A stretch of 64,000 nucleotides of DNA, from the NCBI GenBank assembly GCA_041666945.1, contig JBAYFY010000004.1:6226-70225 (forward strand). Direction: 5' to 3'. The position numbers and the translations under genes were made by a program. Under the pieces are notes generated by a model. The model did no database searches and was not told the origin of the DNA. It was given only the letters and a program-made list of their open reading frames with translations. Numbering within the stretch: position 1 is the first letter of the stretch; every line of letters starts with the position of its first letter. Positions 61 through 30,873 of this stretch are shown here, in pieces. This stretch comes from Candidatus Buchananbacteria bacterium. GTDB lineage: Bacteria > Patescibacteriota > Patescibacteriia > 2-01-FULL-39-33.

Positions 61-125
61 ACTTATTACTTATTACTTATTACTTATTTCTTGTTACTTG
101 TTTCTTGTTACCTGTTACCTCTTTC
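59..125. repeat. Degenerate tandem heptamer repeat (TTACTTA/TTACTTG/TTTCTTG/TTACCTG) x ~9, overlapping 3' end of rlmN
   Basis: Period-7 repetition read directly: ttactta ttactta ttactta ttactta tttcttg ttacttg tttcttg ttacctg ttacctc. Confidence 0.8.
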
Positions 126-1143
126 TTTTCCCCGCCAACTGACCGCAAGCGCCGGCAATATCTCCGCCCAAGGACTTGCGAATAGTCGTTTCAATGCCGG
201 AACGATTTAGAATCGCCTTAAAATGTTTAATTTGTTCCGGCAGCGAGGCCTTAAACCGACGGCTGATCGCGCCGGAACGGGTAATGATCGGGTTATACGG
301 GATCAAATTAACCATGACTAATTTCTTTGGCAACTTTTCCAATAATTCAACCAATTCCTTGGCTTGCTGGTCGCTGTCATTAACGCCGTCAATCATTACA
401 TATTCAAACATTAATTTCCGGCCCTTTTCTTTCAGATAAAGCTTGAGCTGATGGAATAATTCTTCCAATTTATAGCTTGAAGCGATCGGCATTAATTCCC
501 GCCGCAACTCGTCATTTGGCGCGTGCAAAGAAATCGCCAAATTAATCTGCAAAGGATAATGAATGATGTTTTTTAGGCCTTCAATCAAACCGCAAGTGGA
601 GACGGAGATAGATCGCGCCGCCAAACCGAAACCGTCTTTATCATTAAGCAAGCCAATCGCCGCCGCGACGTTCTGCCAATTCAAAAGCGGCTCACCCATG
701 CCCATAAACACCACATTATCTATCTTTTTGTTTTCAAGTTTAAGTTGGCGGGCAAAGTAAATCACCTGTTCAGTGATTTCTTCTGTCGTCAGATTGCGTT
801 CAAATCCTCCTTGGCCGGTAGCGCAAAACAGGCAGCCCAAAGGACAGCCGACCTGGGAAGAAACGCAAACCGTATAACGGCCGTCTGCGTTATAAAGCAA
901 TACTGTTTCAATCAAGGCGCCATCGGATAATTTAATCAGCGCCTTGCGGCTTAAACCGCTTGCCGTTTCCGTGGCGTTGATTCCCAAAGGGCAGTCATCC
1001 TTCAGTTTTTGTTTTAAAGCGGCAGGCAGATTAGTGGCTTCATCCCAATCGCCGATTAATTTCAAATACACCGCTTGCTTGATTTGCTTCAAGCGATAAG
1101 CGGGTTGATTGGCTAATATTTTGTTTAGGGCTGATAAATCCAT
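115..1143 (-). CDS. rlmN: 23S rRNA (adenine2503-C2)-methyltransferase RlmN, radical SAM (alternative start at 1167)
   Basis: CPLGCLFCATGQ radical-SAM CxxxCxxC motif, GxGEPL, C-terminal Cys; overall RlmN/Cfr architecture. Confidence 0.85.
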   Translation of the reverse strand: MDLSALNKILANQPAYRLKQIKQAVYLKLIGDWDEATNLPAALKQKLKDDCPLGINATETASGLSRKALIKLSDGALIETVLLYNADGRYTVCVSSQVGCPLGCLFCATGQGGFERNLTTEEITEQVIYFARQLKLENKKIDNVVFMGMGEPLLNWQNVAAAIGLLNDKDGFGLAARSISVSTCGLIEGLKNIIHYPLQINLAISLHAPNDELRRELMPIASSYKLEELFHQLKLYLKEKGRKLMFEYVMIDGVNDSDQQAKELVELLEKLPKKLVMVNLIPYNPIITRSGAISRRFKASLPEQIKHFKAILNRSGIETTIRKSLGGDIAGACGQLAGKRKR

Positions 1144-1180
1144 AGCGATGCAAAAAGTCCCGCGCAAGGCGGGAGCTTTT

Positions 1181-9117: not shown

Positions 9118-12100
9118 TCACTCTCCGCTTCCCGGGTCAACCGATGAAACATTCGCCACCACCACCGTTGATGCGGCATCCGTTACCGTTACCGGAGGTT
9201 CATCAGCGGCCGGCGCCGACTCGGAAATAGGCAGTTCCTCTGTTGCTGGCAAAGTTTCCGGATTGGGCGGCTCGTCAGCAAGCATATCGGCTGATTGGAT
9301 TGTTCCGCTTACATCGGAATCCGTTGTTTCTGTCACGCCCAAATTAGCCGTGTTTAAAACAGTTGACGCCCCGATGACATCGGTAACTAACGATGAGGTA
9401 GAACTGACAAAAAACGGATTGCTGCTGGATGATTCTGTCGTGGTAGAAAAATCATTCTGCAGAATAATCAGCGAACTGCTGCTCAAAACAATATTCAGCC
9501 CGTCATCAGTGATTTCATCGTTAGTCATAATCCCGCTTTCATCGCTCTTAACCGCTATGGCATGCCAATTAAATCTCATTTCTGCCGTAAACGGCAAATC
9601 AACCGCCAGAATGAAACCTGTGGAACTTTGCGCTTCCACCCAATAATTGTGTCCGGCGACATTAAGCAACGGAGTCAAGGTAATTATCGGATCAACTTCA
9701 TACGGTTTGGCAAAATATACGGCGGTAGAAGTCGCGCCCACAGGCAATTCTACCGTGCCGGCCGCATCTTTATCCAAATAAATATGATCCTTAAACACCA
9801 CTTTGGATTCAAACCCGGCTTCGCCGATAACTGTGATAGTGCCGTAAAAAGTAGCCGAAGAATCAACCGTCAGCGAATCCAATTCTTCGGTTTCTTCAAC
9901 GGAAGCGTCAGTAACAGCCAAATCGGAAGAGGTGCTCACGAGTTCCGACAACTGGGCGGATAAAACCCCAAGCTCCTGCTCCTGGCGTTGGGCGATTTGT
10001 AATAAATAAAACGATAGATGATCAAAACGATAGCCCCGGGTTAAACCGTCATCCATGTATAATTCCGGCAAGACATCCCTGATTTCTTCGGCGATCAAGC
10101 CGAAATCGGTTTGTCCGGTTTTTTTCCAGACAAAGGATTTGACCTGCAAACCCAATAAAGCGTCAATATCAAGATCGGTATCAATAATTTCCTCTTTGTA
10201 TTCTCTGGAAGACGGATTGACATTGGTCAGGGTGCCGTTATTGGAATAAACGATGCCGTTAGTGTTTAAATTAGTAACTGTTAAAGTGCTGGTAACCGTT
10301 ACCGCCTTGCCATCGGCGTCAAAAGTAACAAAAGGCAGAGAATCATTGTAATCAAGCCATTGATAGGTCTTGGCGCTCTGAAAATACAATAATTCAGTCG
10401 TGGTGTTAAAAGCGATGTCTGCCGTAGCGGCCATCTGCAAGTTGGTAAAAGTTAAAACAGAATCACGATTTGTTGAATAAAGAATCGCCTGATCCTTTAT
10501 TCCGATCAAATCATAATCAGAACCACCGGTAAAAGCGGAAGTGGAAGCATGCCCGGCAATTATCGGTACACCCATTAAGGTGTCATCCCAATAAAAATCA
10601 ATGCCGTAATCCCCGTCACTAGTGAGCTTTAGCCAATCGTCATTGGAAGTAACGGTTAATTTATGGGTCGGGGTGCTGGTGGTAAAACCGATAGTGGTAG
10701 TGGAATTCAAATTAGTTTCACCGGCAACCTTAAGGCCGCCACCGCCGACTATCACTCCGAAAAATTTGCCCAAACCGATGGTTATCAAATCCCTTAACAC
10801 TTGCAGACCGCCAGACACTATAGAACCGACCCGAGCAGTTGGCGTTTCCATTCCCGGAAGTTTTACAATTACTAATTCATTATTGGGGTTGGCGGAAAGC
10901 GGCAAATAAGCCCGATTGCCGGCTACTTCTACGCCCCAAGGAAATTTAACCAAGGAAAGCGAATCGACGAAAAACGGATTATAAGGATTAGAAATATTTA
11001 TAATTCTTAAAGCCCTGCCCTTGGCATCAACTACGTAAGCATAGTCCCCCTGGACAGCTAATCCGGAAGCTCCGGAATATCCAAGTTCGGTGCTAAAAGA
11101 CAAACCGCTGCCGCCGACTATAACCGGATTAGTGGAAGAAGAAATATCAATAATCCTAAAAACCTGGGTGGAGGTTATGCCGGCATCAGTGGTCGGACCG
11201 AAACAATCGCTGGTCGTATAAGCATAGTTGCCGCGCACCACCACGTCTCTGCCTAAGGGCGACATCGCTAAATTCTGTCCGCCGACTACAACCGGATGGT
11301 AAGGATCGGATATATCGGTAATCCTAAAGACATCAGTAGAAGTATCAAAATAACTGACGGTATAAGCGTATTTTCCCTGAATGTCAATACCGCGCGTCTC
11401 GCCCGGGAAACCGCTTACGGAAGCGCTTATTCTTGCTGGGTTTGAGGGATCGGAAACATCTATAATTTGCAGGCCGTCATAGCCCCTGGCAGCAGTAGTA
11501 TAATAAGCGGCGTAAAGCAAGCCGTCTATAACCCTTAATTTCCTTAGAGCGTAATCATTGGTATAATTGCTGCCAACCATTTCCACCGGGTTAGTCGGAT
11601 CGGTAATATCCAAAATAGAAAGGGTGGTGGTACTGCCGGTATCATAATCTTCAAAACCGATATAAGCGTATTTGCCGTCAACCTCAATGCATCTGGCGCC
11701 GCCGTCCGGCAAACCGGGCTGCAAAGAAAAATCGCTGTCCAATAAAATCGGATTGTCAGGGTTGGAGATGTCAAAAATCCTCAATCTATTGGTGGAAGTG
11801 GCGGATTGCATCACTACATAAAGATAATCGCCGTAAACCGCCGAATTGGACGCGCCGCCAGACACATCAGGCAAAGAGGTGGTAACATAGGTCAAGGCGG
11901 CGGTAAAAGCCGTTGTCGTACTGATGGAAAGCTTGGTAAAAAATGGCGAGGAGGTAACGCTAAGCAAGCCGTTAGTGGCTTGTAAAACTCCGGTCAGATT
12001 GCTGATTGTCAGATTGCCGGAAAGATTCAAGTTTGTCAGGTAGGGCGAGGAACTCACTGATACCAGTCCGTTAGCGGCCTGCAAGATACCGTTCAAACTG

Positions 12101-13884
12101 CCGACGGTTAAATTACTGGAAATGACGGCGGTGGTTGCGGTAGCATTGCCGCTGATATTCAATCCGCCACTGCTAACGGTAACTTTGTTGTCAAAAGTGT
12201 AACCGCCCGAAGCGTTATAAAACGCTAACACGTCAGTGGAAGAAGTCCAACCTATATTAGCATTACCGGCAGTGCCTACAGAACCAAAATAAATTTCCGG
12301 ATCAGCGCCGTTACTAAAAATCTTAAAATCCTCGGCCGTTACGGAGAATATATTCAAGCTGACTATATTACTCAAATTGTCATAGACAGCGAAAGTTAAA
12401 TTTTTTTGTAACGCATCAAAAGATTGGACTAATAAATTATCACTATCAACAACACCCATATACAAGCCCGGACTTTCATTTGGAACGGTCTGCATGATAA
12501 TCATTGAGTCCTTAACCGTGCCCAACTCGCTCATTACAACTGATGTGCCGGAAAAAGCGGTAGAGGGAAAAGTGTAACTGTAAATACTGGAAGTAGTATT
12601 GCCGCCGGAAAATGAAAAGGTGGTGGTGGCCAAAGTGGAAGTGCCGGTAACAGACAGGTTGCCGCTTAAGGTCAGGCCGGCGAAAGTTGGCGTATTAGTC
12701 GTGTCCAGCCATTGGTTAAAGGGATTTTTTGCCGTGGCTGCCGAGTAATAGGTGTTAAAATTGCTCTGGAATCCCGCCCAAGTCGTAGTGGTATTCCAAA
12801 AATACTGTTCGGAGGTGGTAGACCAGCGAATTTTTGTGCTTTCCCAATAGTCGCTGGAACTGGTAGCCCAACTGCCGGCTAAAGTGGAAATATCCGACCA
12901 ATTATTGATATACACGCCGTTCAAACCGGCGGTAGTTCCCAGATAAGAGTTAGTGGAGGTAGCGGCGGTGGTGGTTGATCTGGCAACGGTCAAATCAGTG
13001 ATATCGGCGATGGATGCGGTCAAATTGGTGAACCAGCCGGAGACGGCATTGAAGACGGAGGTATAAAAATTAGTTGTGGTGGCTTGGGTTATGGAAGCAT
13101 AAGTGGAAAACAAATTAGTGGAGGTGGAATTTATCGCCAAAGTTGATGAAACGTTTAAGGTCTTGATGTTGGCAGTTGAAGTAACCGATAAGTCGGTAAC
13201 AGCGAGAGTGCTGCCGGTCGCGTCGCCAAAAACCAAGGTAGTGATATTGGCTATAGTGGCCGTCAAATTACTAATAACCGAAGACAGCGCAGTAACAGCA
13301 TTGGCAAAAAAATTCGTGCTGGTGGCATTAGTGATTGAGGCCTTATCGGCAAAAAAGTTAGTGGAAGTCAAATTGGTAATAGTGGCGCGACTGTTGACGA
13401 TATCCGCTCTTAAAAATGAAGTGGTGGCTAAGCCGTCCAGTTCCAACGCGTTTAGCGCGTTAGGCACGGCGCCCAGGCGTTTCCTCGGAGTGAGGGTTTC
13501 TCCGCTTACGGCCACTTCCAAATACAAATCCTGATTGAAATCAACTGATGATAAAGCCGTAACCGAGCCCAGCATAACCGAAAAAAGACCGTTAGTGACT
13601 GCGACTTGATCGGCGCCGGTTCGGGTTTCCGTCCAAAGAACTGAGGAACAAGCCGAGTCGGCGCACAATCTAAAAACCATGTCATAATTGCCGTCGGCAA
13701 CTGCCACATCGGAATGATCAGTAAGCTTACCTTGATAATTTATTTGTTGGTTAAAGGAAGCATCGGCTTGAGAAACGGAAAAAAACAGGGTGGACACGGC
13801 AAAACAAGCCATGATAACCCTAATTATCAGGTACCTAAAACTTTTTTGGTGTGTGTTTGTCACCATGCCAAAAATTTTATGCAT
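9118..13884 (-). CDS. Giant (1588 aa) secreted surface protein: signal peptide, long Thr/Ser/Asn-rich beta-repeat region, LVIVD-repeat beta-propeller, internal peptidase S74-like intramolecular chaperone autoprocessing domain (~nt 9925-10212), acidic C-terminal tail
   Basis: N-terminal hydrophobic signal region; repeats YAY..D....L.I.DIS.P..P (LVIVD type) x6; SSREYKEEI...FVWKK....DFGLIAEEIRDVLPEL...coiled coil matches S74/CIMCD consensus. Confidence 0.8.
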   Translation of the reverse strand: MHKIFGMVTNTHQKSFRYLIIRVIMACFAVSTLFFSVSQADASFNQQINYQGKLTDHSDVAVADGNYDMVFRLCADSACSSVLWTETRTGADQVAVTNGLFSVMLGSVTALSSVDFNQDLYLEVAVSGETLTPRKRLGAVPNALNALELDGLATTSFLRADIVNSRATITNLTSTNFFADKASITNATSTNFFANAVTALSSVISNLTATIANITTLVFGDATGSTLAVTDLSVTSTANIKTLNVSSTLAINSTSTNLFSTYASITQATTTNFYTSVFNAVSGWFTNLTASIADITDLTVARSTTTAATSTNSYLGTTAGLNGVYINNWSDISTLAGSWATSSSDYWESTKIRWSTTSEQYFWNTTTTWAGFQSNFNTYYSAATAKNPFNQWLDTTNTPTFAGLTLSGNLSVTGTSTLATTTFSFSGGNTTSSIYSYTFPSTAFSGTSVVMSELGTVKDSMIIMQTVPNESPGLYMGVVDSDNLLVQSFDALQKNLTFAVYDNLSNIVSLNIFSVTAEDFKIFSNGADPEIYFGSVGTAGNANIGWTSSTDVLAFYNASGGYTFDNKVTVSSGGLNISGNATATTAVISSNLTVGSLNGILQAANGLVSVSSSPYLTNLNLSGNLTISNLTGVLQATNGLLSVTSSPFFTKLSISTTTAFTAALTYVTTSLPDVSGGASNSAVYGDYLYVVMQSATSTNRLRIFDISNPDNPILLDSDFSLQPGLPDGGARCIEVDGKYAYIGFEDYDTGSTTTLSILDITDPTNPVEMVGSNYTNDYALRKLRVIDGLLYAAYYTTAARGYDGLQIIDVSDPSNPARISASVSGFPGETRGIDIQGKYAYTVSYFDTSTDVFRITDISDPYHPVVVGGQNLAMSPLGRDVVVRGNYAYTTSDCFGPTTDAGITSTQVFRIIDISSSTNPVIVGGSGLSFSTELGYSGASGLAVQGDYAYVVDAKGRALRIINISNPYNPFFVDSLSLVKFPWGVEVAGNRAYLPLSANPNNELVIVKLPGMETPTARVGSIVSGGLQVLRDLITIGLGKFFGVIVGGGGLKVAGETNLNSTTTIGFTTSTPTHKLTVTSNDDWLKLTSDGDYGIDFYWDDTLMGVPIIAGHASTSAFTGGSDYDLIGIKDQAILYSTNRDSVLTFTNLQMAATADIAFNTTTELLYFQSAKTYQWLDYNDSLPFVTFDADGKAVTVTSTLTVTNLNTNGIVYSNNGTLTNVNPSSREYKEEIIDTDLDIDALLGLQVKSFVWKKTGQTDFGLIAEEIRDVLPELYMDDGLTRGYRFDHLSFYLLQIAQRQEQELGVLSAQLSELVSTSSDLAVTDASVEETEELDSLTVDSSATFYGTITVIGEAGFESKVVFKDHIYLDKDAAGTVELPVGATSTAVYFAKPYEVDPIITLTPLLNVAGHNYWVEAQSSTGFILAVDLPFTAEMRFNWHAIAVKSDESGIMTNDEITDDGLNIVLSSSSLIILQNDFSTTTESSSSNPFFVSSTSSLVTDVIGASTVLNTANLGVTETTDSDVSGTIQSADMLADEPPNPETLPATEELPISESAPAADEPPVTVTDAASTVVVANVSSVDPGSGE

Positions 13885-19916: not shown

Positions 19917-21146
19917 ATGACAAAATCTAAAATCCCCCGACTCATCAAACAAGAAGTCCAACGCCAAAAGCAAGGATTGACGATGATCGCTTCCGAAAAT
20001 TACTGCCCGCAGAATATTCTAAGCGCCATGGGCACCGCTTTATCCAATAAATACGCTGAAGGGTACCCCGGCAAGCGTTATTATTCGGGCAACAAATACA
20101 TTGACGAAATAGAGAGCGCCGCGCAAAAATTATGCTTGGAAATATTCGGCCTCCAGCCGGAAAAATGGCACGCCAATGTTCAGCCGCACTCCGGCTCCTC
20201 CGCCAATTTGGCGTGTTATCTTGGCTTGCTCCGGCCGGGCGCTAAAATCTTAGCCATGGACTTGTCTGCCGGCGGACATTTGACGCACGGTTCGCCGGTA
20301 AACTTCTCCGGCCGACTGTTTAAATTCTCTCATTACGGCGTAGATAAGAAAACCGAGCGATTGGATTATCAGGCCATCGCGCGCCTGGCCAAGAAAGAAC
20401 GGCCCGAAATGATCGTCTGCGGCGCCACCGCCTATCCGCGTCTGATTGATTTTAAAAAATTCCGGCAAATTGCCGATTCCTGCGGCGCCCTGCTTCTGGC
20501 GGACATCGCTCATATCGCCGGACTGATTATCGCCAAGGAGCATCCCTCACCCTTCCCTTACGCTGACGTTGTCACTTCCACCACGCACAAAACTTTGGGC
20601 GGACCGCGCAGCGCTTTTATCATTTGCCGCCGCGGTTTGGCCCAAGCGATTGATAAAGCCGTATTCCCCGGCCTCCAAGGCGGGCCGCTGGAGAACATGA
20701 TCGCGGCCAAGGCCTTGTGTTTTGAGCGGGCGTTGTCAAAAAATTTCGTCAAAATACAAAAACAAACAGTGGCCAATGCCAAAGTATTAGCCGAAACCTT
20801 AAAAAAATCCGATTTACGGCTAGTCGCCGGCGGCACGGATAATCATTTGCTCTTAGTGGATTTGCGTTCTGCCGGCCTAACCGGTAAAATTGCCGCCGAC
20901 GCTTTGGAAGACGCGGAAATTTATACCAATGCCAATATGATTCCCAATGATACGGCCAAACCGCTTAATCCTTCGGGCTTGCGTCTGGGTACGGCGGCTT
21001 TGACTACTCGCGGGATGAAAGAGAAAGAAATGAAATTGATCGGCCTGTGGATTGCCGAAATCGTCAAACGGCCGAATGACGCCAAATTAATAGCGCGGAT
21101 CAAAACAGAAGTCCATGACCTGACTAAAAAATTCCCGATTTATTGA
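19917..21146 (+). CDS. glyA: Serine hydroxymethyltransferase
   Basis: TSTTHKTLGGPR PLP-lysine motif, 409 aa. Confidence 0.92.
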   Translation: MTKSKIPRLIKQEVQRQKQGLTMIASENYCPQNILSAMGTALSNKYAEGYPGKRYYSGNKYIDEIESAAQKLCLEIFGLQPEKWHANVQPHSGSSANLACYLGLLRPGAKILAMDLSAGGHLTHGSPVNFSGRLFKFSHYGVDKKTERLDYQAIARLAKKERPEMIVCGATAYPRLIDFKKFRQIADSCGALLLADIAHIAGLIIAKEHPSPFPYADVVTSTTHKTLGGPRSAFIICRRGLAQAIDKAVFPGLQGGPLENMIAAKALCFERALSKNFVKIQKQTVANAKVLAETLKKSDLRLVAGGTDNHLLLVDLRSAGLTGKIAADALEDAEIYTNANMIPNDTAKPLNPSGLRLGTAALTTRGMKEKEMKLIGLWIAEIVKRPNDAKLIARIKTEVHDLTKKFPIY

Positions 21147-21218: not shown

Positions 21219-21250
21219 GAGCCGTAACTCACGCGAGTTACGGCTCTTTC
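21219..21250. terminator. Bidirectional hairpin terminator between convergent glyA and 21288-22220
   Basis: gagccgtaactc-acgc-gagttacggctc with flanking T/A runs on both strands. Confidence 0.55.
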
Positions 21251-21287: not shown

Positions 21288-22220
21288 TTATCCTTCCGCT
21301 TTTAACCCCTCAACCGACGCAACGGTTACGGTTTCAGTTTCGGCTTGTCGCGCCTCGGCTTTCGCCAATAACCCTTCAATATAAGCCATCTCTTGATCTA
21401 CTATGGCGTAAACCTCGGGCAGATAACCAAGATATTTATCGCGGGACTTTTCAGCCGCCGACAGTAGGCCGGCAAAAAGCTGACGCCAATTTTCCCATTG
21501 TGATTTTTCCACGAAGAACATGGCGCCGTTGTCATTTTCAAAATTAGGAGGGCTTTTAACCACCCTGACTAAATAATATTCGCCTTCCTCAATAATGATT
21601 TCTAATAGCGTTCCCGCTTTAATGGTCCTGGATGACTTAAACATGGCTCGGGTCGGATTTTTCAGGGTCACGCTGTCATCTTTGGGAAAAATCGCCTGGC
21701 GTTCATTCACTTCTCCGGTAATATTACCTAAAAAATTCAGAATGAGATTAAGATCGGCCACCCGGCTTTCATATTGGTGCGCTTCCAAGCCGGTTCGTTC
21801 CATGTCGGGACGATTGAAATAAAAAACTTCACCGCTGCCGATTCCTAATTGTTCTCCCATGGCATCGGGGTTTTTGGGATCCAATTGATACCGGCCATAA
21901 CAAAAACCGCAAGGGAAAACCTGGTTAGCCAAATCATTGCGTTCCGCCAGTTTTAAATAATAGACATACTCACGCGGCGGTTCGGGCAACGGCTGATCCG
22001 GCGCTGAAATTTCCGCTAAGACCGACTGGGCTGTTTCAGCCAGGGCCGCCGAGCGAATCGCTTCCTGTCGCCGGAAATAAACATTCTTGATTGTCCTGAC
22101 GCAATACCTGAATAAAAAATAGGCAACGGTAAGAATTAAAACCAATACGGTTAAGGGCGCCAAAGAATTCAAAACCAGTTCAAATAACTGTCTGAACAAG
22201 TCAAAGATTTTTTCCATCAT
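21288..22220 (-). CDS. Hypothetical protein with N-terminal TM anchor
   Basis: 310 aa ORF, hydrophobic N-terminus LAPLTVLVLILTVAYFLF. Confidence 0.6.
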   Translation of the reverse strand: MMEKIFDLFRQLFELVLNSLAPLTVLVLILTVAYFLFRYCVRTIKNVYFRRQEAIRSAALAETAQSVLAEISAPDQPLPEPPREYVYYLKLAERNDLANQVFPCGFCYGRYQLDPKNPDAMGEQLGIGSGEVFYFNRPDMERTGLEAHQYESRVADLNLILNFLGNITGEVNERQAIFPKDDSVTLKNPTRAMFKSSRTIKAGTLLEIIIEEGEYYLVRVVKSPPNFENDNGAMFFVEKSQWENWRQLFAGLLSAAEKSRDKYLGYLPEVYAIVDQEMAYIEGLLAKAEARQAETETVTVASVEGLKAEG

Positions 22221-22242: not shown

Positions 22243-23175
22243 TTAGAATTCTTCTCTTAAGATTATTTCTACTACCGGATTGCATAACGATTTGATAAAA
22301 ACGAAATCCAGCCCGGCCAGCAGTTTAACGGCCGCGGGACAGGAGTCCGTGGTGTAAAGACGGTTAATCAACCCTTGCTCGTGGGCTTCAACCAGCTTGC
22401 TAACGGCTCGGGCATTAACAGCGGCGTGAGGCACGACCAGGTTGATCGTTGCCGCTCCCTGGGATTTCAAAACCTTGGCGCATTCAATCAAAGTGCCTCC
22501 GGTCCGAGTCAAATCATCAACAATCAAGATATCCCGCCCTTGCACTTTGCCCTCTTTTACGGTGACGATGCGCTCGTCGCCTTGCCTGATCTTCTGGCAA
22601 GTGATTTGCGAAAAATTACTCAACGTCTTGCCGAAACGCTTTTGCGCTCCCTCGTCGGGAAAAGCCACTGACCAATCGTAGAACGATTTTGATAAGTAAG
22701 GAATGGCCGATTGTAAAAAAACCAGGACGTTATCGGAAAAATAAAATTCCTCGCGCAGATCATGAATGTCAAAAATAAAAATCCGGGGCGTGCCGGCATT
22801 GCCCGGTATGGCGTCAAACATTCGAGCCAAACTCTTGGCCGTAACAATATCACCGGGTTTCATTTTCCGTTCCATGGTGCCGGTGGGGTAAAAAGGCAAA
22901 ACTACATTGAGCGACCTGGCGCCATAACGCGGCAAAGCCCATAAAACGGAAAACTGGCGGAAAATTTCCAACGGATTTTCCAAAGAGGCAAAAAACCAGA
23001 CGTGTCTGTTTCTCACCGCTTCGGCGTCTATGGACGTATCGGGAAAACCGTCGGAAAACTCCCCCCACCTGACGGGAGAATACTCAACCGGATAATGCTC
23101 AAGGGCTTTTGCTACGGCGTGAGCGAATCCTTCCATGATCGGGCAACCCAAAATAACAACATTTTTGTCAGGCAT
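22243..23175 (-). CDS. Divergent ribose-phosphate pyrophosphokinase (Prs)-family protein
   Basis: Canonical PRPP/ribose-P loop DILIVDDLTRTGGTL and N-terminal FSDG present, but the usual PY(F/Y)GYARQDR(R/K) flexible loop is replaced by PFYPTGTMERKMKPGD. Confidence 0.7.
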   Translation of the reverse strand: MPDKNVVILGCPIMEGFAHAVAKALEHYPVEYSPVRWGEFSDGFPDTSIDAEAVRNRHVWFFASLENPLEIFRQFSVLWALPRYGARSLNVVLPFYPTGTMERKMKPGDIVTAKSLARMFDAIPGNAGTPRIFIFDIHDLREEFYFSDNVLVFLQSAIPYLSKSFYDWSVAFPDEGAQKRFGKTLSNFSQITCQKIRQGDERIVTVKEGKVQGRDILIVDDLTRTGGTLIECAKVLKSQGAATINLVVPHAAVNARAVSKLVEAHEQGLINRLYTTDSCPAAVKLLAGLDFVFIKSLCNPVVEIILREEF

Positions 23176-23336
23176 GGTTTCTATTCCTTTCTGGTTGCGT
23201 TGTTATTGCTCATATTAAATTGTAACGTTCTCAAACTTTCTAAGAACAATCAACCTTTTAATTGCTCTATTGAAAGGCAGAGGCGAAGCGCCTCTGCATG
23301 AAATTAACTTAATCCAACTAATAGCGCCTATTGCCT

Positions 23337-24137
23337 TTAGAGTATTAACCTGGGGAAAATAGTATCTTCGTCTTCTGGCAGATAATACAAATCCGAACAA
23401 GTACCATCGGATCGTCCCGCAACTAACTCCGCGCTCTTGATCCGATCTTCCTCTGGCACATACACTTGCGGACGAATCAGCCAAATCGGCTTCAGCCAAA
23501 TCGGCTGATGTTTGGCAAAAAGATTGTTATAAAGCACACGACAACCGCGCAACTCTTTACCCGCCTCTTTTCGCGACTGATACCAATGCTGAAAAGCTTT
23601 GGTCCGCCAAATATGCAACGGCACCTGGCATTCGCCGCCGATTCTTAAAGCGCCTCGGCCCAACATGTCCAAAGCCAACTCAATGGTCTTTTTCAAGGTA
23701 TTCGCCGTAGGAATTTGATATTTTCCCGCTTTCTCAAACAAGTACTTCATGCGAGCAGCATTTTCAGGCGCGCCCAAAACAACTTTGCCCGATTTCATCC
23801 ATTCGCCGAATTCCACGTTAGTGGTCAAAGCCGGCATATGTTTAAGCTCCCGCGGTATCCAGAATAGGATTACATCGGCGCGATTGAGCCCTTCGTCTTC
23901 CCAGTCGGTTTGGGCTTGGCGATTATTGTCTTTGCGGAAACCGCCGCCTTTCTTTTCCGGATCATAAACCGTACCGGAGAAACTCAGCGACTTTAAAATG
24001 GCGAAAGCGCCGAATTTCCAGGATAACCCTTTTTCATCCCGCGGAATCGGTCCGGCTAAAAAAATGCTTTTAGTCACTTGAGCGGGAAAGGGCTCTTGAC
24101 CATGCACAATGGTAAAACCGTATTTTTCAGGCATCAA
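23337..24137 (-). CDS. Nucleoside 2-deoxyribosyltransferase / DNPH1(Rcl)-like N-glycosidase-fold protein with extra C-terminal domain
   Basis: SIFLAGPIP ... ADVILFWIP ... TTNVEFGEWMKSGK pattern matches NDT/DNPH1 Rossmann-like fold with catalytic Glu. Confidence 0.5.
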   Translation of the reverse strand: MMPEKYGFTIVHGQEPFPAQVTKSIFLAGPIPRDEKGLSWKFGAFAILKSLSFSGTVYDPEKKGGGFRKDNNRQAQTDWEDEGLNRADVILFWIPRELKHMPALTTNVEFGEWMKSGKVVLGAPENAARMKYLFEKAGKYQIPTANTLKKTIELALDMLGRGALRIGGECQVPLHIWRTKAFQHWYQSRKEAGKELRGCRVLYNNLFAKHQPIWLKPIWLIRPQVYVPEEDRIKSAELVAGRSDGTCSDLYYLPEDEDTIFPRLIL

Positions 24138-24952
24138 TCATCCTCCTTTGGGGTTTGCGGCAAAAACTGCTGATGTTTACCGGCTAAAGCCAGTAAATCG
24201 CTGTCGGAATAGGTTACTCTGACTATTTTTTCCCACTCGTTACGCGAATTGGATGGGCACCAAGGGCAAACGGAACGCCGCCAAACATAATAAGGCGTAA
24301 TCTGCCCCGTAAACGGATCTTGTCGAGTATAATGGACAACTTGACAGTTATGAATACGATCAAGCGGATCCTTGGAGCTATCCATTTCCACATATTGAAA
24401 GGGAGTGAGGCGTTCCAAACGAACTATAAAACACCACAGCATCTCGCCGTGATTAACTACGACGACATTATTCTCTGAACATTCACGATGGAACGTCCCC
24501 AAAACCCGATCGGCTCGCATACAGGCGTTAGCCATGGATTCCCCTCCGAGTGGCGACCAATAAAAACCGTTACCGTCGCGATTAAGCAAAATCGGGCCAT
24601 ACTTCTCGCGCCGTTCATCGTCAGGCAAAACGCTTAATTTCCCCCATTCACGCTCACGCAGATTATAATCTATTTTCCAGCGACCGTTCAAACCCAATAA
24701 TGCAGCGGTTTCACAGGCCCTGACATAATCAGAAACAAAAAATTTATGAAAAGGCATTCCCAATTGCCTAAGCCAAGCACCGGTAACTTGAGCTTGCTGT
24801 CTGCCGCGGGGAGTCAAACGAAATTGCCTGTCTTGAGTTCTGCGAAATTCAGCAGTAAACATAGCATTATCGCCACGACGCGATAATGCATTAGCTTGAT
24901 TCAATTCCGATTCGCCATGGCGGACCAAAAACAAATTCATCGGCATAGGCAT
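24134..24952 (-). CDS. Histidine phosphatase superfamily (branch 1) protein
   Basis: LVRHGES RHG motif near N-term, second His in VVVNHGEMLW; 4-bp overlap with downstream gene. Confidence 0.7.
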   Translation of the reverse strand: MPMPMNLFLVRHGESELNQANALSRRGDNAMFTAEFRRTQDRQFRLTPRGRQQAQVTGAWLRQLGMPFHKFFVSDYVRACETAALLGLNGRWKIDYNLREREWGKLSVLPDDERREKYGPILLNRDGNGFYWSPLGGESMANACMRADRVLGTFHRECSENNVVVVNHGEMLWCFIVRLERLTPFQYVEMDSSKDPLDRIHNCQVVHYTRQDPFTGQITPYYVWRRSVCPWCPSNSRNEWEKIVRVTYSDSDLLALAGKHQQFLPQTPKEDD

Positions 24953-25114
24953 AATCTATTCCTCCTGATTGTTGGATTAATTTTAAAGTGCTTGATTTCT
25001 TCAAACCAAGACGCCTACCGAGGTAAGCGGCTTAGGTAAAGGGCGGAGCTGTCGGAAATTTTCGACAGTTCCGCCGGTTTAAACTAAAAGGTGCTTTTAC
25101 GAGGATTTACGATA

Positions 25115-26746
25115 TTACGATAATACGGGAATCGGCGCCTCCGAAGCCATAAGCGCATGCATTTGCTGGTAGACCAACTCGGTTACCGCCACTTTAAACG
25201 GCGTTGGATTTTCCGGCCGCAAATGGTCTTCGCGCGTTTCTTCCTTAAACTGCCGTTTAACATGCGCCTGAACGCCCAAAACGCCTTGGGCAAGAGAATC
25301 AAAACGTTGGCCATTAAAAAACACGAGTTGATGCAATTCCTTACCAGTGGCCGGCTTAACTTTGCAACGAACCGTCTCATTGACCGGATCGCGGCAAAGA
25401 ATCTCATTAGACGCGCGGATTGACTGAACCACTTCATCATATTCTTCATCAGCCACCAAAAGATCCAAAATGGCTTTCCCGTCCGCGCCATACAAACGAA
25501 TCGCTCGTTTAGCGCCGGGGATCGTCATCTTTTCACTATTCATTGACAGTTTGATGACGGGGCGATCGTCGATTTGCACCAACTTATACACACCACCCAA
25601 TGCGGGACAATTCGCCAAACGGGTACCGATGCCAAAGTGAGTGATATGATGTTTTTGTCTGCTAAAACTCCACAAAATCGCCTCATCAATATCGTTAGAC
25701 GCCACAATTGCTTGTTTGGTAAAATCGCAATGCCGGCAGGGATAATATTTCTGAATACGTTCATAGCCATTATAGACGACGTTGGACAAATACGCCAAGT
25801 CGCCAGAATCCAGACGAACGCCTAACGGAGTATAACCATATTCAGCCAGAGCCAAGGCGACTGCCAGATAATTGGGCAAGCCCGAAGTTTCAACGTTGTA
25901 AGTGTCAATTAAGGCCAAAAACCTCTCGGGATTAGCCCAGGCGTAATCAATAAACGCCGCCAACTCGCCTTGATTGGTTTCACTGGGAAAATAACCCTTA
26001 AGACACTTCTGATAATGCAGGGTGTCGGTGGTAAGGTTATGCGTGCTCTTTCCATCCTTGGCGGTTAACAGTCTATGGCATGACAAATCCTCCGCCGTAT
26101 AGCTGGTAACAAAGGAATGGGCATGCGTTCCGCCGACTGGCAAATCATAAATCAGGCCGGCCAAAACATCGGAGGTGGAATTGAACCCGCCCATAAGCGC
26201 ATAGTGCGAAGCGGAAATGGCGCCGTCCGGACCGGGGGCCCGGCGCAAAGCGAATTCCATCAATACCGCTTCCCAGCCGGCCGCATAACGCATGCGCGCC
26301 GCGTTGGTGGCAATTTGCGTCGCATAATTCGTCAAATTCAAAAGAGTCGTCTCAATCAATTGAGCCACGCAGATCGGCCCCGCCACGCGCACTAACGGCA
26401 CTCGCGGAAACATCAAAGTCCCTTCTTCCGGCGCCCACACTTTGATTTTCATCTTCAATGAATTGAACCAGTCAAAAAATTCCGGTTCATAGTGGCTGCA
26501 AACGGGCAAGCTCTTCAAATAACGAATCTCTTCCGGCGTCAAACAGAAGTCGGACAAATAATCAAGGATGCGGCTCAAACCGGCAAATACGGCGTATTGG
26601 CCGCCAAACGGAGCGGTGCGGTAAAACAAATCAAACACCGCATACCGTTCTTCCCGGCTGGTTTTCCAATACGTGTAGAGCATGGAAATCTGATAAAAAT
26701 CGGTCAAAAGCGGGGAAATTCGCGACGGCTTTTCCTGTCCAGTCAT
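25115..26746 (-). CDS. pncB: Nicotinate/nicotinamide phosphoribosyltransferase, long eukaryotic-type (NAPRT family)
   Basis: LLTDFYQISMLYTYWK ... APFGGQYAVFAGL N-terminal signature of NAPRT; 543 aa. Confidence 0.8.
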   Translation of the reverse strand: MTGQEKPSRISPLLTDFYQISMLYTYWKTSREERYAVFDLFYRTAPFGGQYAVFAGLSRILDYLSDFCLTPEEIRYLKSLPVCSHYEPEFFDWFNSLKMKIKVWAPEEGTLMFPRVPLVRVAGPICVAQLIETTLLNLTNYATQIATNAARMRYAAGWEAVLMEFALRRAPGPDGAISASHYALMGGFNSTSDVLAGLIYDLPVGGTHAHSFVTSYTAEDLSCHRLLTAKDGKSTHNLTTDTLHYQKCLKGYFPSETNQGELAAFIDYAWANPERFLALIDTYNVETSGLPNYLAVALALAEYGYTPLGVRLDSGDLAYLSNVVYNGYERIQKYYPCRHCDFTKQAIVASNDIDEAILWSFSRQKHHITHFGIGTRLANCPALGGVYKLVQIDDRPVIKLSMNSEKMTIPGAKRAIRLYGADGKAILDLLVADEEYDEVVQSIRASNEILCRDPVNETVRCKVKPATGKELHQLVFFNGQRFDSLAQGVLGVQAHVKRQFKEETREDHLRPENPTPFKVAVTELVYQQMHALMASEAPIPVLS

Positions 26747-26749
26747 TAC

Positions 26750-27376
26750 CTATTCTCCTTCTCTGTCGTTATCTGCCGCTAATTGCGGATAAATTTCCCG
26801 CAGAAACCACTGCGCCAAAGCAAATGTTTTCAAATCGACATAGGGCATATTTTCCAATCTTTCAATCGCGATCCAACGGCGTTCCACTTCTTCACCCTCT
26901 TCGGCTAAACCGAAATGTTTTCGGCTGTGGTCAAATTCATCATCATTGAACTCGGCATAACCCAAGAAAATACGCTCGGTAACGATTCCCGGCGAAGTGA
27001 AAAGAGAAGCGCCAAAATTAACCAGCGTAAAATGTTCTATGGCTGTCGGCAAATCAACCAACAAGCCCAGCTCTTCCCGAGCTTCGCGAGCCATCGCCTC
27101 GATTGTAAGTTCTCCGTTATCAATGTGGCCGGCGGGGACTTCCTGCACGCGACCCGCGTCGCGGGAAAACGAAGCGGCCGGCCTTTCTTGGTAAACCATG
27201 GCTACGGCGCGCTTATCGCGATTGTAAACCAAAAACGCCACGGCGTTTTTCTTTTCTACAATCTCCTGCTTTCCATGAAAACCGCGCCAAACTGTGACCC
27301 AACCTTTATAAACCAGCTCATAGGCCTCGCCCAAAAAAATCCCCACTCCGCTTTGATCGCTGTTATTGTTGTCCAT
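26750..27376 (-). CDS. Nudix hydrolase (ADP-ribose/NAD pyrophosphatase-like)
   Basis: Nudix box GHIDNGELTIEAMAREAREELGL. Confidence 0.8.
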   Translation of the reverse strand: MDNNNSDQSGVGIFLGEAYELVYKGWVTVWRGFHGKQEIVEKKNAVAFLVYNRDKRAVAMVYQERPAASFSRDAGRVQEVPAGHIDNGELTIEAMAREAREELGLLVDLPTAIEHFTLVNFGASLFTSPGIVTERIFLGYAEFNDDEFDHSRKHFGLAEEGEEVERRWIAIERLENMPYVDLKTFALAQWFLREIYPQLAADNDREGE

Positions 27377-27419
27377 GATTTGTTCTCCTTTTTTGTTCGG
27401 TTAATGTTTCTGTTGCTAA

Positions 27420-28118
27420 TCAAATTTGATAACCGTAAAGCCCATTAATCCTGATATACTTAGCGATATTGGGAGGAACTAAATTCTCCCAATCACAACG
27501 ACTCCCGGCAATTGAAGCGCGAATTTGCGACGAAGAAATGTCTATTCTCGTATTCAATGAAGCGATTTGAAATTGCCAAGGCAACTGTAAGCCGCCTAAT
27601 TCATAACCGGGCCGGGGATAAACCAGCCAATGCCATCTCTGACAGGCAAACAGCCATTCGCCCCGTTTCCAACGCGCCTGAATCTCATTCAGGCCGCCGA
27701 ATTCCGGACGCGGTATTACCGAATCCGAACCGGTCAGCCACGTTAGTTTGGCTTGCGGATATTTTTTGACTAAATATTCCAGCCAATTTATGGTTGCCGT
27801 GTTCCGGCCGAAAATGTCATCATACCAAACCTGAAAATTAATGGGATTGCCGGACAAGCGGCGAAAATCATTAACCATCATTTCGGTCATGGCGATTCTA
27901 TGATTTACGCAATCATGGCAAAATCCCGCTGAATTGTCAGCGCATTTCGGGCAAACCGCCAAATACTTATCAGGCCGCTCGCCGCAAGGAATCCAAATCA
28001 TCAAATCATAATCGTCCTTTCTTTCGCCTTGCAAAACGTCAGCTAAAATGGCGTAATGACCGCAATGAGGAGGATTGGCGGAACTGCCGCCGATGATAAT
28101 GCTTTTAGGATCAGTCAT
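27420..28118 (-). CDS. nadD: Nicotinate/nicotinamide mononucleotide adenylyltransferase-like (NadD/NMNAT family)
   Basis: IIIGGSSANPPHCGH (H/T)xGH nucleotidyltransferase motif and C-terminal ISSSQIR motif. Confidence 0.7.
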   Translation of the reverse strand: MTDPKSIIIGGSSANPPHCGHYAILADVLQGERKDDYDLMIWIPCGERPDKYLAVCPKCADNSAGFCHDCVNHRIAMTEMMVNDFRRLSGNPINFQVWYDDIFGRNTATINWLEYLVKKYPQAKLTWLTGSDSVIPRPEFGGLNEIQARWKRGEWLFACQRWHWLVYPRPGYELGGLQLPWQFQIASLNTRIDISSSQIRASIAGSRCDWENLVPPNIAKYIRINGLYGYQI

Positions 28119-28450
28119 TTTCTCTCCTTCTTAAACCTGCCAAAACTTTTACTTAAACAGGTTATTTTAAAAAATTTAAGGTGCTTGCCTCCGACTCTGT
28201 GAGTCAGAAACAGAAAACAACGCTCATTTTAATCAGCGCTGATTTCCAATTTTATCTAATTTTAGACAAAAATTTAGTCATAATTAATCATTTTAACCTG
28301 CGCGATTCATTCTTAATTTATCTTTGTTTTATCTTTCCGAGTTACATTAATAAAGAGAATCACCTAATTTATCACAAATTAAGCTAAAAGTCAAGTTTTT
28401 AACTAAAAATACTAAGACCCGCCCCAAAGGTTGGAGTATTAAAATAATTC

Positions 28451-29814: not shown

Positions 29815-30873
29815 TTATTCAATCATCATGCCATCGCCGAAAGAAAAAAACTTATATTTCTTTTTGATTGCCTCGCGATAAGCGGAAAAAATTTTATCCC
29901 GTCCGGCAAAAGCCGACACTAACACCAATAAAGTTGATCGGGGCAAATGGAAATTAGTGATTATGGCGTCTGTAAACTTAAACTTGTAGCCGGGATAAAT
30001 AAAAATGCCGGTTAAGCGGTTGCCGCTGCCCAAGCGGCCGGAAGAATCAGCCATGGTTTCCAGAGTCCGGACCGCCGTCGTGCCGACCGCTATGATCCGC
30101 CGGCCTTCGGCTTTGGCGCGATTCAATTTGCCGGCAGTGATCCGGTCGATCTCAATCCATTCCGCGTGCATCTTATGTTCCAATAAATTTTCCGTTTTAA
30201 CCGGCGCAAAAGTCCCCAGTCCCACATGCAAGGTTACGTATTCAATCTGCACGCCGCGGCTTTCCAATTGCCTTAAAAGTTTTTTGGTGAAATGCAAACC
30301 GGCGGTCGGCGCGGCCACCGAACCGGCTTCCTTCGCATAAACTGTTTGGTAATCTTCTAACTTCGCCTTGGCCTTAATGTAAGGCGGCAGGGGCGTCTCG
30401 CCCAAAGCGAATAATTGCTTGTCGCCGGCATTGAATTCCACCAGCCAAGTGTCGGCGCTGTCCCTGCCTGTTATTTTGGCAAAAACATCCTGGCTTAAAG
30501 CTATCTCTTGCCCCGGCTTGACCTTTCCGCCGATCAAGCATTGCCATAAATTATTTTTTTGTTTTCCGGCTTTGGGCCTGCCCGGCTTTAACGGCTTGAG
30601 CAAAAATATTTCCACTCGGCCGCCGGTATCCTTCACGCCGGACAAACGCGCCGGTATCACTTTGGAATCGTTAAAAACCAAAACATCGCCCGGCTGAAGC
30701 AAATCGGGCAAATCAAAAAAATGACGATGCCTGATCCGGCCGGTGATTTTATCCAAAATCAAAAGCCGCGCGGCGTCACGCGGTTTTATGGGTTGTTGGC
30801 CGATCAGTCGCGCCGGCAAAGAAAAATCAAATTTGGCCAGGGGGAGCGTGGCGGTTATTTTTAACGGTTTCAT
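29815..30873 (-). CDS. queA: S-adenosylmethionine:tRNA ribosyltransferase-isomerase
   Basis: FDFSLPARLIGQQP ... VFNDSKVIPARL ... AAPTAGLHFT ... VGTTAVRTLE. Confidence 0.9.
   Translation of the reverse strand: MKPLKITATLPLAKFDFSLPARLIGQQPIKPRDAARLLILDKITGRIRHRHFFDLPDLLQPGDVLVFNDSKVIPARLSGVKDTGGRVEIFLLKPLKPGRPKAGKQKNNLWQCLIGGKVKPGQEIALSQDVFAKITGRDSADTWLVEFNAGDKQLFALGETPLPPYIKAKAKLEDYQTVYAKEAGSVAAPTAGLHFTKKLLRQLESRGVQIEYVTLHVGLGTFAPVKTENLLEHKMHAEWIEIDRITAGKLNRAKAEGRRIIAVGTTAVRTLETMADSSGRLGSGNRLTGIFIYPGYKFKFTDAIITNFHLPRSTLLVLVSAFAGRDKIFSAYREAIKKKYKFFSFGDGMMIE

Follow-up and report, generated by a model that had tools for sequence, protein, structure and literature searches.

The question raised by this locus is whether six co-directional genes linked to nicotinamide adenine dinucleotide (NAD) form a housekeeping salvage operon or a module like the NAD+ reconstitution pathways (NARP) of phages. 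The genes lie on the minus strand of a 64,000-nucleotide stretch of contig JBAYFY010000004.1 from Candidatus Buchananbacteria (Patescibacteria, Candidate Phyla Radiation (CPR)). This whole stretch is called the window. Both possibilities had been raised in a sequence-only reading, made without database searches. The analysis supported a chromosomal NAD salvage and recycling operon running from about 28390 to 21219 on the minus strand, with a rough probability of 0.8. Its core is of a known kind, a Preiss-Handler salvage operon with phosphoribosyl pyrophosphate (PRPP) and ADP-ribose recycling. The earlier proposal of NAD salvage in a reduced genome was upheld with refinements: in relatives the operon closes with nadE, which is missing from the window, and the Prs and NDT-like genes, called atypical before, both recur in Patescibacteria NAD clusters.

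The six genes are as follows.

27420..28118, minus strand: NadD-like protein, 232 aa; best model TIGR00482
26750..27376, minus strand: stand-alone Nudix hydrolase of probable ADP-ribose pyrophosphatase type, 208 aa; PF00293, Nudix box
25115..26746, minus strand: NAPRT, long 'eukaryotic-type' form, 543 aa; TIGR01513, NAPRTase_N and NAPRTase_C
24134..24952, minus strand: histidine phosphatase (branch 1), 272 aa; PF00300
23337..24137, minus strand: NDT-like protein, 266 aa, putative Nudix-less derivative of the NDT-Nudix fusion family; PF15891
22243..23175, minus strand: predicted class II PRPP synthase (ribose-phosphate diphosphokinase), 310 aa; Pribosyltran_N and Pribosyltran, tree

All six genes were real and lay at the coordinates first given, and their family labels were borne out by Pfam and NCBIfam, except for the label NAMPT-like. 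The NDT-like open reading frame (ORF) was called from TTG, and the ATG at 24134 is the likely real start. The genes had been described as joined by overlaps or short gaps. Three junctions were indeed tight, with one overlap of 4 nt and spacings of 3 and 43 nt; the remaining two gaps measured 161 and 162 nt, and both contained conserved hairpins. Catalytic motifs were intact in all six proteins. The ratios of nonsynonymous to synonymous substitution (dN/dS) of the six genes were 0.07–0.38, indicating purifying selection.

Classification of the Prs homolog

The Prs homolog shared 41% identity (221 bits) with the biochemically characterised spinach PRS4. The identity was 26% (66 bits) with the class I Prs of Escherichia coli, 24% (64 bits) with the Adps of Vibrio phage ICP1, and 26% (53 bits) with the Adps of Escherichia phage PaulScherrer (Bas60). 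These two phage proteins were taken as Adps on account of the NAMPT-family gene immediately downstream of each. Beyond the immediate clade, the closest relatives (41–48%) were plant 'ribose-phosphate pyrophosphokinase 4' and proteins of Desulfobacterota, Chloroflexi, and other Patescibacteria. In a bootstrapped neighbour-joining tree containing one class I and two Adps sequences, the Prs homolog was placed in the class II clade and the two Adps in a separate clade, both at 100%. The phylogeny contradicted the earlier suggestion of an Adps-like enzyme.

The description of the loops was accurate: the PRPP loop, LIVDDLTRTGGT, was canonical, and PFYPTGTMER stood where the RQDR loop would be. The flexible-loop lysine (KIR) was present. 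The equivalent RF-loops are FPTGSFER in spinach PRS4 and FPTGTMER in Desulfonatronospira. A 2026 survey of PRPP synthases gives the RF-loop change as 'TTMER' in class II and 'STMER' in class IV, and PRPP synthase activity was measured for representatives of both classes (PMC13252144). The loops of the two Adps examined were ARADR and ARQDR. Since the TGTMER loop is a class II feature and both Adps examined keep ARxDR, the loop argues against Adps identity. Therefore, the Prs homolog can be identified from its sequence as a class II PRPP synthase.

The likeness to class II enzymes, which include spinach PRS3 and PRS4 and bacterial members, covered the identity to PRS4, the TGTMER-type RF-loop, the canonical PRPP loop, and the flexible-loop lysine. 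The difference was the setting: a predicted class II Prs in an NAD operon was not found described. No other prs was found in the 64-kb window. All 402 Prs hits in the phage collection were below 31% identity, and a scan of IMG/VR for class II Prs found no close relative. Outside NAD clusters, a 59%-identical class II Prs was found at L172:3672-4595, adjoining Bro-N, helix-turn-helix (HTH), and large serine recombinase genes. This type of Prs can also adjoin mobile-element-like genes in other genomes.

NAPRT, NadD-like and Nudix enzymes

The phosphoribosyltransferase (PRTase) passed the NAPRT equivalog model TIGR01513 with 425.6 bits (cut-off 297.4). Its best PDB match was human NAPRT 4yub (6e-104, full length), followed by Enterococcus NAPRT, and the GTHAHS motif was present. 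BLASTP against the Namat of ICP1 and Bas60 gave E values of 0.18 and 0.69, which were not significant. A partial match to phrog_448 ('nicotinamide phosphoribosyl transferase') had an E value of 2.6e-13 and covered residues 13-319. The sequence-only reading had labelled the protein a long NAPRT/NAMPT-like PRTase. The long NAPRT form was confirmed by TIGR01513 and 4yub; the NAMPT-like part was dropped, as no significant similarity to Namat or Nampt was found.

The best models for the adenylyltransferase were NadD, which prefers nicotinate mononucleotide (NaMN), with a score below the cut-off. Its PDB matches were weak ones to NadD 1kam and 2h29. The HxGH and ISSxxxR motifs were present as HCGH and ISSSQIR, and the label NadD/NMNAT-like was retained. 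The gene is the syntenic orthologue of the first cluster gene in relatives. The dN/dS of the NadD-like and NAPRT genes was 0.07–0.18, indicating strong purifying selection. At residues 56-70, the NadD-like protein carried a CPKC...CHDC insert, possibly a zinc ribbon; canonical NadD is not known to have an insert of this type.

The Nudix label was sound, with a NUDIX match (PF00293) at E 5.9e-14 and an intact Nudix box. The protein also carried an SPGIVTE loop, which we take to match the SPGGTSE loop of NudF. The best PDB matches were the ADP-ribose pyrophosphatases 1v8i, 1viu, and 1g0s, together with NudK (E about 6e-7). Together with the NadE of relatives, NAPRT and NadD would form a Preiss-Handler route that has a PRPP source of its own and is accompanied by a putative ADP-ribose pyrophosphatase.

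Chromosomal context and synteny

The same gene order was found at the same chromosomal site, between a DHH gene and glyA, in three relatives: L004 (957 kb), L007 (249 kb), and L008. The order was DHH gene, nadD-like, Nudix, NAPRT, histidine phosphatase, NDT-like, prs, and nadE. The nadE gene encodes a glutamine-dependent NAD synthetase of 696–713 aa and is followed by convergent glyA, rsmE, and lspA. A more distant relative, whose Prs was 50% identical, had the same block with an upstream PncA-like isochorismatase and an ADP-ribosylglycohydrolase (ARH), a full-length 412-aa NDT-Nudix fusion, and a split NadE. In Falkowbacteria (L011:5222-17367), eleven co-directional genes formed an NAD supercluster in the order NadD, PncA-like, unknown, NAD kinase, PncB, NDT-Nudix, histidine phosphatase, radical SAM, ADP-ribosylglycohydrolase, class II Prs, and NadE. 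The window cluster is a reduced form of this recurrent Patescibacteria NAD supercluster around the nicotinate (Preiss-Handler) route. In the lineage of the window, pncA, ARH, and the Nudix domain of the NDT-Nudix fusion were lost.

The radical SAM protein of the L011 supercluster is MoaA-like, and the gene of unknown type encodes a conserved 340-aa protein without a family match. L016 had a 315-aa ORF at the corresponding position, also without a family match. The radical SAM gene at window positions 115-1167 was considered as a member of the cluster-associated radical SAM family and was rejected.

The cluster lies among housekeeping genes. The window contained information-processing genes (rsmE, queA, ruvB, nusA, and a class I aminoacyl-tRNA synthetase), chaperone and secretion genes (lspA, hrcA-grpE-dnaK-dnaJ, and the trigger factor gene tig), and metabolic genes (glyA, a PEP-utilising phosphotransferase, a pyruvate kinase homologue, and a thioredoxin-reductase-like flavoprotein). 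Genes for phage structural proteins, integrases, or transposases were not seen in the window. In the cluster, PADLOC gave weak sub-domain matches (the PRTase-loop stretch in Prs and the Nudix box) and no defence-system family, and the general PHROGs and PADLOC matches were to PRTase loops and Nudix boxes. The neighbourhood check suggested earlier thus yielded housekeeping genes and none of phage, mobile-element, or defence type. Elsewhere in the window, a 1588-aa protein with LVIVD repeats and a Peptidase_S74 domain (endosialidase chaperone) is encoded at 9118-13884 on the minus strand, among surface-protein genes. The Peptidase_S74 domain is typical of phage tail fibres.

Comparison with the phage NARP pathways

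The phage pathways NARP1 (Adps and Namat) and NARP2 (Nampt and Nmnat) share with the cluster the superfamilies of Prs-like kinases, type II PRTases, HIGH-motif adenylyltransferases, and Nudix hydrolases, and have the common aim of keeping NAD supplied. If the cluster were NARP-like, the Prs homolog would be an Adps making ADP-ribose pyrophosphate, to which the PRTase joins nicotinamide (NARP1), or the cluster would combine a Nampt with an Nmnat/Nudix pair that restores NAD once immune systems have depleted it (NARP2). The composition is superficially alike, and the PHROG matches included 'ribose-phosphate pyrophosphokinase' (1.4e-26) as well as the phrog_448 family named above. The subfamilies and the setting were different: a class II Prs instead of Adps, NAPRT instead of Namat or Nampt, a nicotinate route, and a chromosomal instead of a phage location. 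The Prs homolog was closer to class II than to Adps in identity, tree position, and loop, and the phage collection and IMG/VR held no close relative. According to the NARP study, 97% of Adps genes lie next to Namat (bioRxiv 10.1101/2024.02.11.579819); the PRTase here was NAPRT. In relatives the operon ends with nadE, which fits the nicotinate and not the nicotinamide route. The syntenic chromosomal site and the PADLOC results point the same way.

For NARP1, an Adps-clade Prs, an adjacent Namat, and a phage or mobile location were all three absent. For NARP2, a HIGH-motif adenylyltransferase was present, with NadD as its best models, and a Nampt of the KVP40 clade was absent, the PRTase being NAPRT. 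Because the defining subfamily and context features tested were not found, the cluster is neither NARP1 nor NARP2, and both compositions suggested for it before were not supported. A NARP-like function is scarcely credible, and the hypothesis was closed for this locus. The phosphatase associated with phage NARP1 is a Macro-domain protein and is unrelated to the histidine phosphatase of the cluster. In later scans, a TGTMER-type loop in a Prs homolog should be read as marking a class II PRPP synthase and not an Adps.

The NDT-like protein and the histidine phosphatase

The NDT/DNPH1-like N-glycosidase fold seen before was verified by a PF15891 match (E 1.8e-13, above the Pfam threshold) and a matching fold. 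The structural neighbours listed were 4mcj, an uncharacterised PF15891 protein (17.0), YtoQ (12.2), MilB, a CMP/hydroxymethyl-CMP N-glycosidase (11.3), nucleoside 2-deoxyribosyltransferases (9–10.7), Rcl/DNPH1 (9.6), and TIR domains (about 8–10). Across 55 family members, the invariant residues were Glu109 of T-T-N-x-E-x-G (TTNVEFG in the window), Asp88, Trp79-Glu80, Arg33, and Arg96. Glu109 presumably occupies the nucleophile position of NDT/DNPH1, which is a lead and not a test.

The search for homologues gave 2072 proteins at E ≤ 0.001. Nearly all of the best 120 were about 380–400 aa long and combined an NDT-like part at the N-terminus with a Nudix domain at the C-terminus. The window protein ends just before the Nudix fold, as do P0121 and P0122, the two proteins closest to it, and no Nudix remnant was found downstream of the NDT-like gene. 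The gene is shortened yet constrained (dN/dS 0.18). By sequence, the NDT-like protein can be classed as a Nudix-less derivative of a large unnamed NDT-Nudix fusion family of over 2000 proteins. An origin of the stand-alone Nudix protein by fission of such a fusion was rejected, since its match to the Nudix domain of the fusion had an E value of 0.006.

The distribution of the family was surveyed in one genome per species; neighbours within 5 kb were clustered, and cluster representatives were checked by Pfam. The 546 relatives came from Patescibacteria, Myxococcota, Planctomycetota, several actinomycete genera, and some metagenome-assembled genomes labelled Gammaproteobacteria. The partners of NDT-Nudix, by number of loci, were PncA-like isochorismatase (14), PncB (12), NadE (11), radical SAM (11), NAD kinase (10), NadD (8), histidine phosphatase (7), NrtR (7), ADP-ribosylglycohydrolase (6), and NadA (5). 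With L010 excluded, a core NAD gene lay within 6 kb at 21 of 79 non-redundant loci; any of 12 housekeeping controls did so at 0 of 79. Within the NDT-like superfamily (4mcj/PF15891, MilB, Rcl/DNPH1, and deoxyribosyltransferases), PF15891 has no characterised member. The NAD-operon context is specific to this subfamily, in which most relatives keep the C-terminal Nudix domain that was lost here. NCBIfam has no model for the NDT-Nudix fusion or for the phosphatase subfamily of the cluster, and no assigned function was found in the literature on PF15891, NMN nucleosidase, and YtoQ.

In IMG/VR, NDT-like relatives occurred on 165 'viral' contigs (L090-L169), many of 400–600 kb and some with NrtR and a NAMPT-family gene; others matched in the NDT domain only. 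The 400–600-kb contigs are probably misfiled genomes of Patescibacteria or else very large phages. These matches were not taken as evidence for a phage origin of the NDT-like gene.

The histidine phosphatase label was correct (His_Phos_1, PF00300, E 2.7e-27). RHG was found at residue 11 and the second catalytic histidine at VNHG166. The PDB and NCBIfam matches were generic only. The protein was 44% identical over its full length, including the C-terminal extension, to the Falkowbacteria orthologue beside NDT-Nudix. Wherever present, its gene directly adjoins the NDT gene. The dN/dS was 0.09. At L004:9140-9445, the phosphatase gene keeps the first 9 codons, and residues about 10-69, including RHG, are replaced by unrelated sequence. 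The phosphatase appears from this sequence to be inactivated in L004 and intact in the window and L007.

The nadE slot and the ends of the operon

Outside the six genes, the following features mark the ends of the operon.

28366..28394, minus strand: candidate promoter upstream of nadD; TTGACT, 17 nt, TAAATT, extended TG
21288..22220, minus strand: orphan membrane-anchored ORF, 310 aa (NCBI MFA6594197.1), in the nadE slot of relatives
21219..21246, minus strand: terminator hairpin at the operon end, also facing convergent glyA; 12-bp stem followed by a T run

The candidate promoter is a consensus match only, and such sites were no commoner in the region than in shuffles. The orphan ORF is a co-directional seventh ORF. 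It starts 22 nt after prs and precedes the terminator hairpin, and therefore belongs to the unit. The hairpin lies inside a 54-nt palindromic element shared with L004 at 93% identity and matching it in both orientations.

NadE was found in the corresponding slot of L004, L007, L008, L011, and the P0009 contig. The DNA identity of the window to L004 was 91% in prs and 80% in glyA. Between prs and the 54-nt element, about 980 nt with the 310-aa ORF stand in place of 2.18 kb with nadE. Thus nadE is cleanly swapped for the orphan ORF at this locus, a change confined to this genome, with the flanks conserved. The window's contig and the nadE-bearing sister-lineage contig L008 were found in one assembly (L008 and L254, ENA sample ERZ27249449); both variants therefore co-occur in one sample.

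The orphan ORF had no Pfam, NCBIfam, PHROG, or PADLOC match. It has an N-terminal hydrophobic helix. One real homologue (46% identity) was found among 1.84 billion representative proteins, on contigs of 1.3–1.4 kb with no useful context. A hidden NadE was rejected for this ORF: it has no SGGxDS motif and no family hit, and its AlphaFold2 (AF2) model was poor (pLDDT 53). A protein search for nadE elsewhere was blurred, with the query's own cluster represented by a 271-aa fragment, and a metagenome scan found only the two known relatives. Given the dN/dS of NAPRT and NadD, the route is inferred to be still in use, with the last step supplied from elsewhere.

The synonymous divergence from L004 was 0.29–0.39 for prs and the NDT-like gene, and 1.2–1.4 for glyA (19917-21146) and queA (29815-30873). 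This unevenness, with low values at 22243-24137, suggests a recent recombination tract beside the nadE/orphan swap.

Conserved intergenic hairpins

Two structured regions fill the long gaps of the operon.

24953..25114, minus strand: conserved structured intergenic region with two hairpins at the NAPRT/phosphatase junction; alignment, fold
23176..23336, minus strand: conserved intergenic region with a 9-bp GC-rich hairpin at the NDT-like/prs junction; alignment, fold

The first region is conserved in L004 and L007, with an RNA fold of -48.3 kcal/mol (z = -4.35). It contains a terminator-like site at 25029-25012, and the hairpin occurs once per locus and is restricted to the clade. The second region has an invariant stem and a variable loop across the L004/L007 alignment (fold z = -2.2), also with one copy per locus and in the clade only. 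Both regions, about 160 nt each and both with a GC-rich hairpin, were more conserved than some coding sequence. Rfam at permissive thresholds, run over the whole operon, gave no NAD or other riboswitch. The hairpins may be internal terminators, attenuators, or RNA-stability elements.

Proposed pathway

Judged by family membership, the class II PRPP synthase would convert ribose-5-phosphate to PRPP, NAPRT would convert nicotinate and PRPP to NaMN, and the NadD-like enzyme would convert NaMN to nicotinate adenine dinucleotide (NaAD). In relatives, the glutamine-dependent NadE encoded at the 3' end of the operon would convert NaAD to NAD. The NudF-type Nudix hydrolase would split ADP-ribose, a product of NAD consumption, into AMP and ribose-5-phosphate, feeding the Prs of the operon. 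Rodionov et al. 2008 (PMC2330246) described such a route from ADP-ribose through ribose phosphate to PRPP for NrtR-controlled prs-nadV/Nudix units, and also noted NAD operons that carry a dedicated prs paralogue.

The NDT-like domain could be an N-ribohydrolase that splits a nucleoside 5'-monophosphate (nicotinamide mononucleotide (NMN), NaMN, or AMP) into base and ribose-5-phosphate, like MilB and Rcl/DNPH1. The translationally coupled phosphatase would remove a phosphate that blocks the entry of a pyridine or ADP-ribose nucleotide; it might act on the 2'-phosphate of NADP or 2'-phospho-ADP-ribose, or on a mononucleotide 5'-phosphate. The pair is proposed tentatively, with low confidence, as a catabolic feeder. 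The NDT-like domain may instead have a non-catalytic, ligand-binding role. The broader idea that the pair forms an undescribed branch of NAD breakdown and recycling, common across Patescibacteria and occurring in several further phyla, is likewise of low probability. If it were true, the NDT-like gene could be the missing NMN (or AMP) N-ribohydrolase gene, giving ribose-5-phosphate to Prs and nicotinamide to PncA/PncB.

Preiss-Handler operons known from reconstructions in many bacteria (pncA-pncB-nadD-nadE; PMC2330246) likewise bring NAPRT and a NadD-type enzyme together; close relatives of the window add NadE, and distant ones PncA. The window differs in having neither nadE nor pncA and in adding a PRPP synthase, an ADP-ribose pyrophosphatase-type Nudix hydrolase, the NDT-like protein, and the histidine phosphatase. 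The prs-nadV and NadM-Nudix units under NrtR (PMC2330246) follow the same logic, in which a dedicated prs serves the pyridine PRTase and a Nudix enzyme returns ribose-5-phosphate. In contrast to these units, the window has NAPRT and not NadV/NAMPT, its Prs is of class II, its Nudix hydrolase is unfused, and no NrtR occurs in the window. Three further features were not found described: the module of NDT(-Nudix) protein and phosphatase, the erosion of the cluster in particular lineages (pncA, ARH, the fused Nudix domain, and the L004 phosphatase N-terminus), and the nadE/orphan swap.

Points against the salvage operon and rival explanations

Several points weigh against the salvage and recycling operon. 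A tblastn search with the L004 NadE found no nadE in the operon or the 64-kb window, and the pathway as seen in the window stops at NaAD. The genes pncA, nadK, and nrtR were also not found in the window. The NadD-like protein scored 72 bits against TIGR00482, under the cut-off of 112, with a weak PF01467 match. The Nudix protein scored 57.3 bits against TIGR00052 (YffH/AdpP), under the cut-off of 79.55, and its gene was the fastest-evolving of the cluster (dN/dS up to 0.38). The NAD linkage of NDT-Nudix was found mainly among Patescibacteria; the genes of Myxococcota and Actinomycetes stand by themselves, with no NAD neighbours. Enzyme functions throughout the cluster were assigned by sequence and the substrates are predicted, and the roles of the NDT-like protein and the phosphatase were drawn from fold, conserved residues, and neighbourhood.

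Some of these points would also fit a remnant that is decaying and has partly lost its function, in an episymbiont supplied with NAD or late precursors by a host. The stepwise losses across the clade (nadE, pncA, ARH, and the fused Nudix domain), the replacement of nadE in the window, and the L004 phosphatase without its catalytic N-terminus agree with decay, as do the dN/dS values of the cluster, which were somewhat above those of the flanking housekeeping genes (0.03–0.11). However, all six genes were intact with their catalytic motifs kept, their dN/dS was well below 1, and nadE may lie elsewhere in the genome; a remnant is improbable. A second rival is general pentose and nucleotide salvage, in which ribose-5-phosphate would be recycled to PRPP for all PRTases, with NAPRT and NadD merely co-located. 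No second prs was found in the window, so that the class II enzyme may be the sole visible PRPP synthase, the structural neighbours of the NDT-like protein act on CMP or deoxynucleoside monophosphates and not on pyridine nucleotides, and NDT-Nudix is unlinked to NAD genes in non-CPR phyla. Nevertheless, the recurrent neighbours in Patescibacteria were NAD genes (pncA, pncB, nadD, nadE, nadK, nrtR, and nadA), and other PRTases and nucleotide-salvage genes were not recurrent, which makes this explanation very unlikely. The NAD salvage and recycling operon is preferred to both.

Biological significance

The genomic context of the NDT-Nudix family ties it to NAD turnover, and the family is therefore a concrete target for enzymology, with the partner phosphatase. 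The swap of nadE for a membrane-anchored orphan may mean that a host provides the final step, or that a non-homologous protein has replaced NadE. The NAD supply of ultra-small Patescibacteria is here seen as salvage, PRPP synthesis, and ADP-ribose recycling in one block, which is trimmed differently in sister lineages.

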